This document shows, in pieces, positions 34,876-35,013 of a stretch of DNA of 64,000 bases. Positions within the stretch are counted from its first letter, which is position 1. The number at the start of each line of letters is the position of its first letter. The position numbers and the translations under genes are program-made. The stretch is taken from positions 20,088,001 through 20,152,000 of the forward strand of contig CM069165.1 of the NCBI GenBank assembly GCA_035221665.1. Direction: 5' to 3'. The notes under the pieces are model-generated. The model saw nothing but the letters and a program-made list of their open reading frames with translations, was not told the DNA's origin and searched no databases. Origin of the DNA: Okamejei kenojei (Eukaryota).

Positions 34876-35013
34876 GGGGTGGGAGGTTGCAACCTTCACG
34901 TGGTCCTCCCTGTTTCAAAGAATGCAATCAACCTGGTGTGCACAATCAAATAAGATCAAATAGAACAAGTTGTCCGGCAACTTTAGGTTGTGCACGCCAT
35001 ACGCAAGAAGAAA
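34876..35013 (+). mobile_element. Short non-autonomous retroelement with 5' HDV-like ribozyme fold (copy 1)
   Basis: TSD acacacatt(a/t)at at 34864-34875 and 35014-35025; (GAA)-type tail; homologous end to end to 53696-53834. Confidence 0.8.

Follow-up and report, generated by a model that had tools for sequence, protein, structure and literature searches.

A short retroelement family of Okamejei kenojei headed by a P4-less HDV-like ribozyme fold, and its possible kinship with Vingi-type LINEs and the mammalian CPEB3 ribozyme

The window analysed here is the whole stretch of 64,000 nucleotides of Okamejei kenojei DNA at positions 20,088,001 to 20,152,000 of contig CM069165.1 (GCA_035221665.1, forward strand). 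It carries two copies of F1, a 138-nt non-autonomous non-LTR retroelement which has no ORF, ends in an (AAG)n tail and is flanked by target-site duplications (TSDs) that abut its first nucleotide, G1. We consider it likely that F1 derives from Vingi-type LINEs, that a ribozyme at its head releases the element RNA from longer transcripts and that the element is mobilised in trans. F1 would thus be a Vingi-clade element reduced to a 54-nt ribozyme of the HDV/CPEB3 type without P4, a short structured body and the (AAG)n tail. A source copy would be transcribed inside a longer Pol II RNA, and the ribozyme would cut just 5′ of G1 and set the 5′ end, as the fold and the starts of the copies suggest. 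A Vingi APE-RT protein acting in trans would then bind the 3′ part, nick the DNA and carry out target-primed reverse transcription. This step would leave the 11-12-nt duplications; TSDs and tail are observed, and the best candidate for the partner is a family called V1 below. Inserted copies would finally decay neutrally, roughly half of them still fitting the fold. It is established that HDV-like ribozymes process R2, RTE, LOA and Ingi/L1Tc RNAs at their 5′ ends (PMC5786205, PMC4748587) and are kept by non-autonomous derivatives (PMC5786205, PMC4035085, PMC4748587).

The two window copies comprise the following features, all on the + strand.

34864..34875: upstream copy of the 12-nt TSD, 11/12 identical to 35014-35025, its last base directly before G1
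34876-35013: F1 copy 1, the 138-nt element
34876..34929: HDV-like head of copy 1, 54 nt, without P4 (F1 subfamily A), probably dead in this copy
34876..34882: 5′ strand of P1, with the predicted cleavage site at G1 (34876), the partner of U34911
34883-84: J1/2 of copy 1
34885..34891: 5′ strand of P2, partner 34923-34929; G34886 for consensus A gives a G-U pair
34892..34904: P3-L3-P3′ (P3 34892-94 / 34902-04; L3 34895-901); L3 is UUCACGU, the Rfam CPEB3 consensus loop
34905..34911: 3′ strand of P1, with T34907 in place of the consensus G
34912..34918: the P1.1 G (34912) and a 6-nt stub (34913-18) at the P4 site of sister LINE heads
34919..34922: J4/2, with A at the catalytic position 34919 in copy 1
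34930..35004: 3′ body, with a predicted stem 34934-44 / 34989-99 around a hairpin 34967-83
35005..35013: (AAG)n tail, as also seen in the F2 family and the co-resident Vingi-type LINEs
35014..35025: downstream copy of the TSD
53696..53834: copy 2 (F1 subfamily B), with the catalytic C and P1 intact and P3 broken; perfect 13-nt TSD 53683-95 / 53835-47

Every ribozyme segment of copy 1 lies where the original prediction had placed it, and the element does start directly after its duplication (34864-75 / 35014-25). The A at the catalytic site and the P1 mismatch (U-U), both announced beforehand, are also there; judged from its letters, the head of copy 1 is probably dead. Copy 2 has the catalytic C and an intact P1 as claimed, but two of its three P3 pairs are broken and it is not an intact ribozyme. 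Neither window copy passes our HDV descriptor, and Rfam, run on window positions 30000-40000 at E ≤ 10, returned no HDV-type or CPEB3 match and nothing over the F1 element.

The genome searched comprises 2.76 Gb in 1,141 contigs. A 19-nt piece of the F1 head has 11,295 exact matches in it (control, 0) and a pattern around J4/2 has 11,176; both counts are lower bounds since they cover exact-head or pattern matches only. Twenty random 10-kb stretches held no F1 copy, with about 0.8 expected from 11,295. A TSD-like match accompanies 52 of 63 copies (51 under a stricter rule) vs 137 of 3,906 mismatched flank pairs, and the modal length is 11-12 nt. These 63 copies, taken from the window and the 60 best-scoring loci, are a set biased to full length, and 61 of them align from nt 1. 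Thirty further loci were picked on a 3′ motif only, a design which enriches aberrant copies. Of these copies, 18 begin with nt 1, another 4 within nt 2-4 and 3 within nt 8-20; 4 are headless and 1 is internally deleted. TSDs, tail and copy starts thus agree with the earlier reading of a non-autonomous retroelement whose 5′ end lies at G1; sharp 5′ ends are also expected of any 138-nt element or of an internal promoter.

The majority sequences of subfamilies A and B differ within the head only at the unpaired positions 8, 42 and 45. This amounts to 3/54 positions in the head and 13/84 in the body (Fisher p 0.10), the head being not significantly more conserved. All 11 sampled F1 words occur in sequencing runs of seven organisms, and several of these runs may be the source of this DNA; contigs of two organisms (X1, X11) also carry the element. 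At one locus (L063:1736-1872 and an adjacent targeted copy) two F1 copies stand 270 nt apart and have a 3′ flank in common, as a local tandem duplication or a template switch would produce.

The first 54 nt of F1 fit the nested double pseudoknot of HDV-like ribozymes without P4. As originally proposed, the fold describes the family well: near-consensus copies pass the HDV descriptor with no mismatch. Neither 4.2 Mb of Markov sequence nor any of 20,000 shuffled heads gave a match to the descriptor, a control which speaks for rarity only and not for blind discovery, since the descriptor was written with the family already in view. The predicted consensus C at the catalytic J4/2 position is borne out by 96 of 100 F1 copies among the matches listed, the other 4 having T in a CpG context. 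Among 22 heads chosen on their 3′ part, 20 have this C and 10 pass the descriptor, so that about half fit the fold. The G1-U wobble at the predicted cleavage site is common to F1, F2 (with a 6-bp P1), F3 and V1. C22 and G37, which would form P1.1, are invariant in the head alignment, a single pair with no variation to compare. Where F3 and F4 have 16-20 nt with a stem (P4), F1 and F2 have a 6-nt stub; that of F1 has room for no more than a single pair around a loop of four bases.

General-purpose tools see little of this. A pseudoknot-blind fold of the F1 head is unremarkable (z +0.9), and the predicted stem of the body gives z -2.6 for one copy (L002) and -1.4 for another (L045). The best Rfam match of a near-consensus copy is HDV-F-prausnitzii at nt 1-54, with 14.4 bits vs a gathering score of 44 and E 1.7. 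Copy L002 has no match to the CPEB3 ribozyme model RF00622 (threshold 35 bits) at E ≤ 10.

Covariation of P1, P2 and P3 was among the checks which the original prediction had proposed. A pattern which keeps L3 and forces one P3 pair to differ gave 86 genome matches (control, 6). Of these, 42 are F1 double mutants at one P3 pair and most others belong to F2. G-C makes up 27/42 of the double mutants, and the margins alone predict about 27 (counted by eye). F1 alone therefore shows no covariation, and within-F1 covariation was rejected as a product of transition bias.

Across families the result is positive. F2 is a second P4-less short family of about 166 nt, with TSDs, an (AAG)n tail and a 6-nt stub like that of F1; there were 2,580 first-look candidates (example copy G000:C1:51120747-51120912, − strand; others L112-L117, L121, L127, L175, L177-L180). 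Its P1, P2 and P3 sequences differ from those of F1, at 5/7 pairs in P2 and 2/3 in P3, and both keep G1-U, L3, the G of P1.1 and the C of J4/2. A pattern with the fold-predicted 6-bp P1 of F2 starting at G1 gave 1,037 genome matches (control, 0), and both families begin at G1; the first F2 loci, which apparently lacked G1, were in fact one-base insertion variants favoured by the search pattern. A further pattern yielded 10 loci (F3 and F4) whose heads retain the P4 stem. In the head alignment of F1-F4 (11 rows), 91% of the cells pair, and at 10 of the 17 stem pairs both bases differ between heads without loss of pairing (P1 3, P2 5, P3 2). The covariation score is 0.58 vs at most 0.14 with slid partners, and two pair-count or pair-type measures stay within the shuffle range (108 and 460 of 500). 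This covariation is drawn from four related families, and two F4 rows have non-homologous 5′ strands of P1. Covariation is thus present between families but absent within F1 beyond transition bias.

The family alignment also bears on the main rival, in which the head is dual as in the Pr77 of L1Tc: a ribozyme in the RNA and an internal Pol II promoter in the DNA, with no dependence on read-through. Pr77 of L1Tc/NARTc is both at once (PMC4748587), and in view of this precedent the promoter-less state put forward in the original prediction is a conjecture. The DPE of Pr77 is CGTG at +25 to +28, F1 has CGTG at +24 to +27, and Ingi and Vingi are sister clades (PMC13708176, PMC5786205). However, the fourth base of this motif is C in F2, F3 and F4, tracking the P3 pairing, so the motif is not conserved as DNA, and its other three bases belong to the ribozyme core. 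We regard a promoter function of the head as unlikely. The same alignment lowers the probability that the ribozyme is a vestige, that is, that loss of P4 from an active Vingi ancestor left an inactive or very slow fold, kept for binding protein or protecting RNA. The F1 stub is unable to form a real P4, and an HDV-type fold can protect the 5′ end of R2 templates (PMC13708176). Against this, F1 and F2 keep G1-U, L3, the P1.1 G, the J4/2 C and the start at G1 despite different P2 and P3, and natural P4-less HDV-like ribozymes are active (PMC10879173); a vestige is improbable in our estimation. An ordinary tRNA-derived Pol III SINE whose head fits the fold by accident would explain the size, the TSDs and the simple-repeat tail, but it is largely refuted already and very improbable: no tRNA was found by ARAGORN (0/5 loci) or by Rfam at E ≤ 10, the first 100 nt hold no A box better than 2-3 mismatches and no exact B box, and the head aligns with LINE 5′ ends which score as CPEB3 ribozymes.

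Returning to F1 as a probable Vingi-derived ribozyme element, we examined the LINEs with which it shares the genome. F3-type elements are broken, span 2.5-3.1 kb and encode APE, RT and a C-terminal Cys/His motif; their heads lie about 100 nt upstream of the start of the APE-RT ORF. Since the genomic copies are broken, a single ORF of the co-resident LINEs is reconstructed from pieces and from intact homologues. Among the best 120 of 252, the latter are about 960-1,000 aa long, and their only domains are an endonuclease and an RT. No RNase H match was obtained in six proteins tested. Vingi is described in PMC13708176 as a single ORF with APE and RT, no RNase H and a length of about 3 kb, and the co-resident LINEs, with APE and RT, no RNase H and about 3 kb, appear to fit this description. 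No named Vingi protein occurs among the best 120 homologues listed or in the PDB, a homologue search with a 47-aa piece gave no match, and a motif scan of 543 kb of DNA, made in search of the parent of F1, showed no C-terminal zinc-finger motif. Compared by eye (supplement of PMC5786205), Repbase Vingi-2_Gav opens with the core of F1, its P2 and P3 being of another sequence yet paired. Through the sister families F2-F4 and the LINE heads, the link to Vingi/Ingi elements, tentative at the outset, has become much firmer.

Short derivatives of these LINEs exist. Three loci (L192, L193, L196) join the 5′ 240 nt of F3 to the F3 3′ end; they measure about 330-380 nt and keep the head as well as the start and the end of the ORF, and their junctions show that a route by internal deletion exists in this genome. 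The last 60 nt of F2 match the 3′ end of a Vingi-type LINE (0 of 1,000 shuffles as high) and can still be translated as the final codons of a Vingi ORF. Loci L197, L198, L201, L203 and L204 represent two further old families of the Vingi type, whose HDV-type heads are decayed. The tail of L201 resembles the ‘unknown 3′ end’ of the alligator SINE2-1_AMi, which may therefore be a Vingi tail (supplement of PMC5786205).

Among the LINE families, V1 is an abundant 3.1-kb Vingi-type LINE with 2,966 candidates (copies L240:1264-4389, L250:1212-4335, L209-L238). The 150 scored candidates besides the query locus are 90-97% identical, and V1 is a younger family. It has an (AAG)n tail and ragged 5′ truncation, 3 of 15 copies reaching the 5′ end. 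These three full-length copies carry an HDV-type head of their own, with G1-U, P3 as in F1, a long P4 and a possible 2-bp P1.1. We regard V1 as the best candidate for moving F1, and its head differs from that of F1. In its 3′ UTR (L213, about 1765-1780), V1 shares a 10-11-nt word with the J1/2-P2 of the F1 consensus (window 34883-34893), possibly by chance since the score equals the maximum of 60 shuffles.

The parent of F1 itself was not recovered. Neither the head nor the body of F1 gave a significant local alignment with three LINEs, so homology of the F1 head with LINE heads rests on structure and core. For the body, 861 of 1,000 shuffles scored as high against one LINE 3′ end, and 30 and 111 of 1,000 against F2. 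Only the last 10-12 nt and the (AAG)n resemble LINE tails. The LINE-derived 3′ tail of the original prediction thus finds no significant match among the recovered LINE 3′ ends, although the 3′ body is probably still the part recognised by the LINE. As the body matches no recovered LINE significantly, the autonomous LINE sharing both ends of F1, also proposed as a target, did not emerge either, the V1 head being different. Two patterns run in search of this parent (89 matches, and 100 listed of 176) yielded indel, split and truncated copies with no recurrent new flank.

The heads which retain P4 point to a known ribozyme. F3 and F4 heads pass the RF00622 gathering score (35) at 10 of 10 loci with 36.3-66.8 bits. 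CPEB3-scoring repeat heads are listed as L181-L190, L171 and L172 (e.g. G000:C14:40547627-40547690, C19:41379732-41379799). Two F2 insertion-variant copies fall on either side of this score, L117 above it (38.5) and L139 below (33.9). The head at L187 equals the Rfam CPEB3 consensus at 44 of the first 46 nt (by eye). Vingi-2_Gav agrees with this consensus at 52 of the 54 positions outside the P4 interior, and the same 7-bp P4 stem recurs in the alligator SINE2-1_AMi (both by eye, from the supplement of PMC5786205).

Metagenome contigs extend the search. For three of 76 CPEB3-core matches, a long Vingi-like ORF follows 80-135 nt downstream in the same orientation. A further 4 loci, which form two near-identical pairs, score above the RF00622 threshold. 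Under the descriptor, none of the 76 metagenome matches and 1 viral match has both the full fold and a Vingi-like ORF. The 69 of 77 matches which have neither the full fold nor a Vingi-like ORF were set aside as probably due to chance. At two loci (L304, L321), a CPEB3-type head whose P1 seems to be split by an inserted hairpin precedes a long Vingi-like ORF; the head at two others (L300, L314) is related and has another P2. The first 385 nt of an IMG/VR contig (L331) contain a phage P4-less HDV-like fold with the P3-L3-P3′ of F1, directly upstream of an ORF which may encode a GIY-YIG/HNH-type endonuclease. Since the bare P3-L3 core also occurs in this phage, identity of the core alone does not amount to homology, and the case for a CPEB3-Vingi link therefore rests on P1, P2 and P4 as well.

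A sea-urchin example of a sequence similar to the CPEB3 ribozyme was reportedly given by Webb in 2009. A description from 2021 states that the CPEB3 ribozyme had been found in mammals only. PMC8256844 mentions that sea urchin, lamprey and lancelet have CPEB3-related ribozymes, spread by retrotransposition. On sequence grounds, it is possible that heads of Vingi-type LINEs gave rise to the mammalian CPEB3 ribozyme, which would be a domesticated Vingi 5′ end. We lean slightly towards the joint proposal that the Vingi clade is headed by CPEB3-type ribozymes, that at least two SINE-sized families here combine an active P4-less ribozyme with a tail, thousands of their copies being cleavage-competent, and that mammalian CPEB3 is such a domesticated end. 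An outgroup for the CPEB3 ribozyme has been said to be lacking (PMC8233481), and the sister LINE heads supply it, which makes this origin directly testable. The CPEB3 link is a bigger lead than F1 itself.

F1 shares with CPEB3 (RF00622) an identical L3, a two-base J1/2, a 7-bp P1 with G1-U, a 7-bp P2, a 3-bp P3, the G-U after P1 and, in subfamily A, CGAA. It differs in its P1, P2 and P3 sequences, in the loss of P4 and in being a repeat, CPEB3 being single-copy and intronic. The minimal HDV-like ribozymes (drz-Mtgn-1, theta) resemble F1 in having no P4, about 54 nt and a C which opens J4/2. In contrast to these phage ribozymes, F1 heads a vertebrate retroelement and has P4-bearing relatives in the same genome. 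According to PMC10879173, nearly 99% of the minimal ribozymes come from gut phages, often beside tRNAs; its eukaryote set is limited to RefSeq complete genomes, human and mouse. Among Vingi derivatives (Vingi-1_EE derivatives, Vingi-2_Gav and SINE2-1_AMi), the core of the F1 head corresponds to nt 2-74 of Vingi-2_Gav. Unlike them, F1 has no P4 and a body which is not traced to a LINE.

Elements of the same general kind occur in other hosts. The trypanosomatid NARTc, RIME and SIDER are non-autonomous derivatives of L1Tc/ingi with an HDV-like head (PMC4035085, PMC4748587). As proposed for F1, these elements and the R2 SIDEs are short, non-coding and LINE-derived, begin with an HDV-like ribozyme at nt 1 and are moved in trans. 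F1 stands apart by its vertebrate host, its length of only 138 nt, its (AAG)n tail and its more than 11,000 copies; furthermore, its head has 54 nt without P4 vs the 77-nt Pr77, and its partner would be of the Vingi type without RNase H. R2 SIDEs are reported as short R2-derived retroelements headed by an HDV-like ribozyme (PMC3414825). Since ribozyme-headed non-autonomous elements are known (NARTc, RIME, SIDER, R2 SIDEs), F1 would be new only as a P4-less, vertebrate, high-copy form. The novelty first suspected holds for the P4-less vertebrate form, but this kind of element was already familiar from trypanosomatids and R2. Our literature search found no description of the F1 family, of a Vingi ribozyme or of a Vingi origin of CPEB3; key primary papers, supplements, patents, Repbase and Dfam lie outside this search and may reduce the novelty.

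If F1 cleaves, a vertebrate SINE-sized family would have a catalytic RNA in the place of a Pol III gene at its head. It would also provide a natural HDV-like ribozyme without P4 that does not come from a phage. P4-bearing and P4-less forms stand together in one genome. With about half of the copies (10/22 sampled) fitting the fold, thousands could cut the surrounding host pre-mRNAs; such cutting, if true, predicts an antisense bias in introns. Lastly, Vingi-1 is under development for gene insertion with its native 5′ UTR (PMC13708176), so that a ribozyme at its 5′ end would matter for template design.

The window also contains other repeats. An abundant repeat of about 120-200 nt occurs on both strands between 9185 and 63617 (e.g. 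35975-36150, 37031-37164), often as inverted pairs which fold into long hairpins and are falsely matched to miRNAs by Rfam. On the minus strand near 41300 lies a reverse transcriptase fragment of another LINE type, with a FADD motif.
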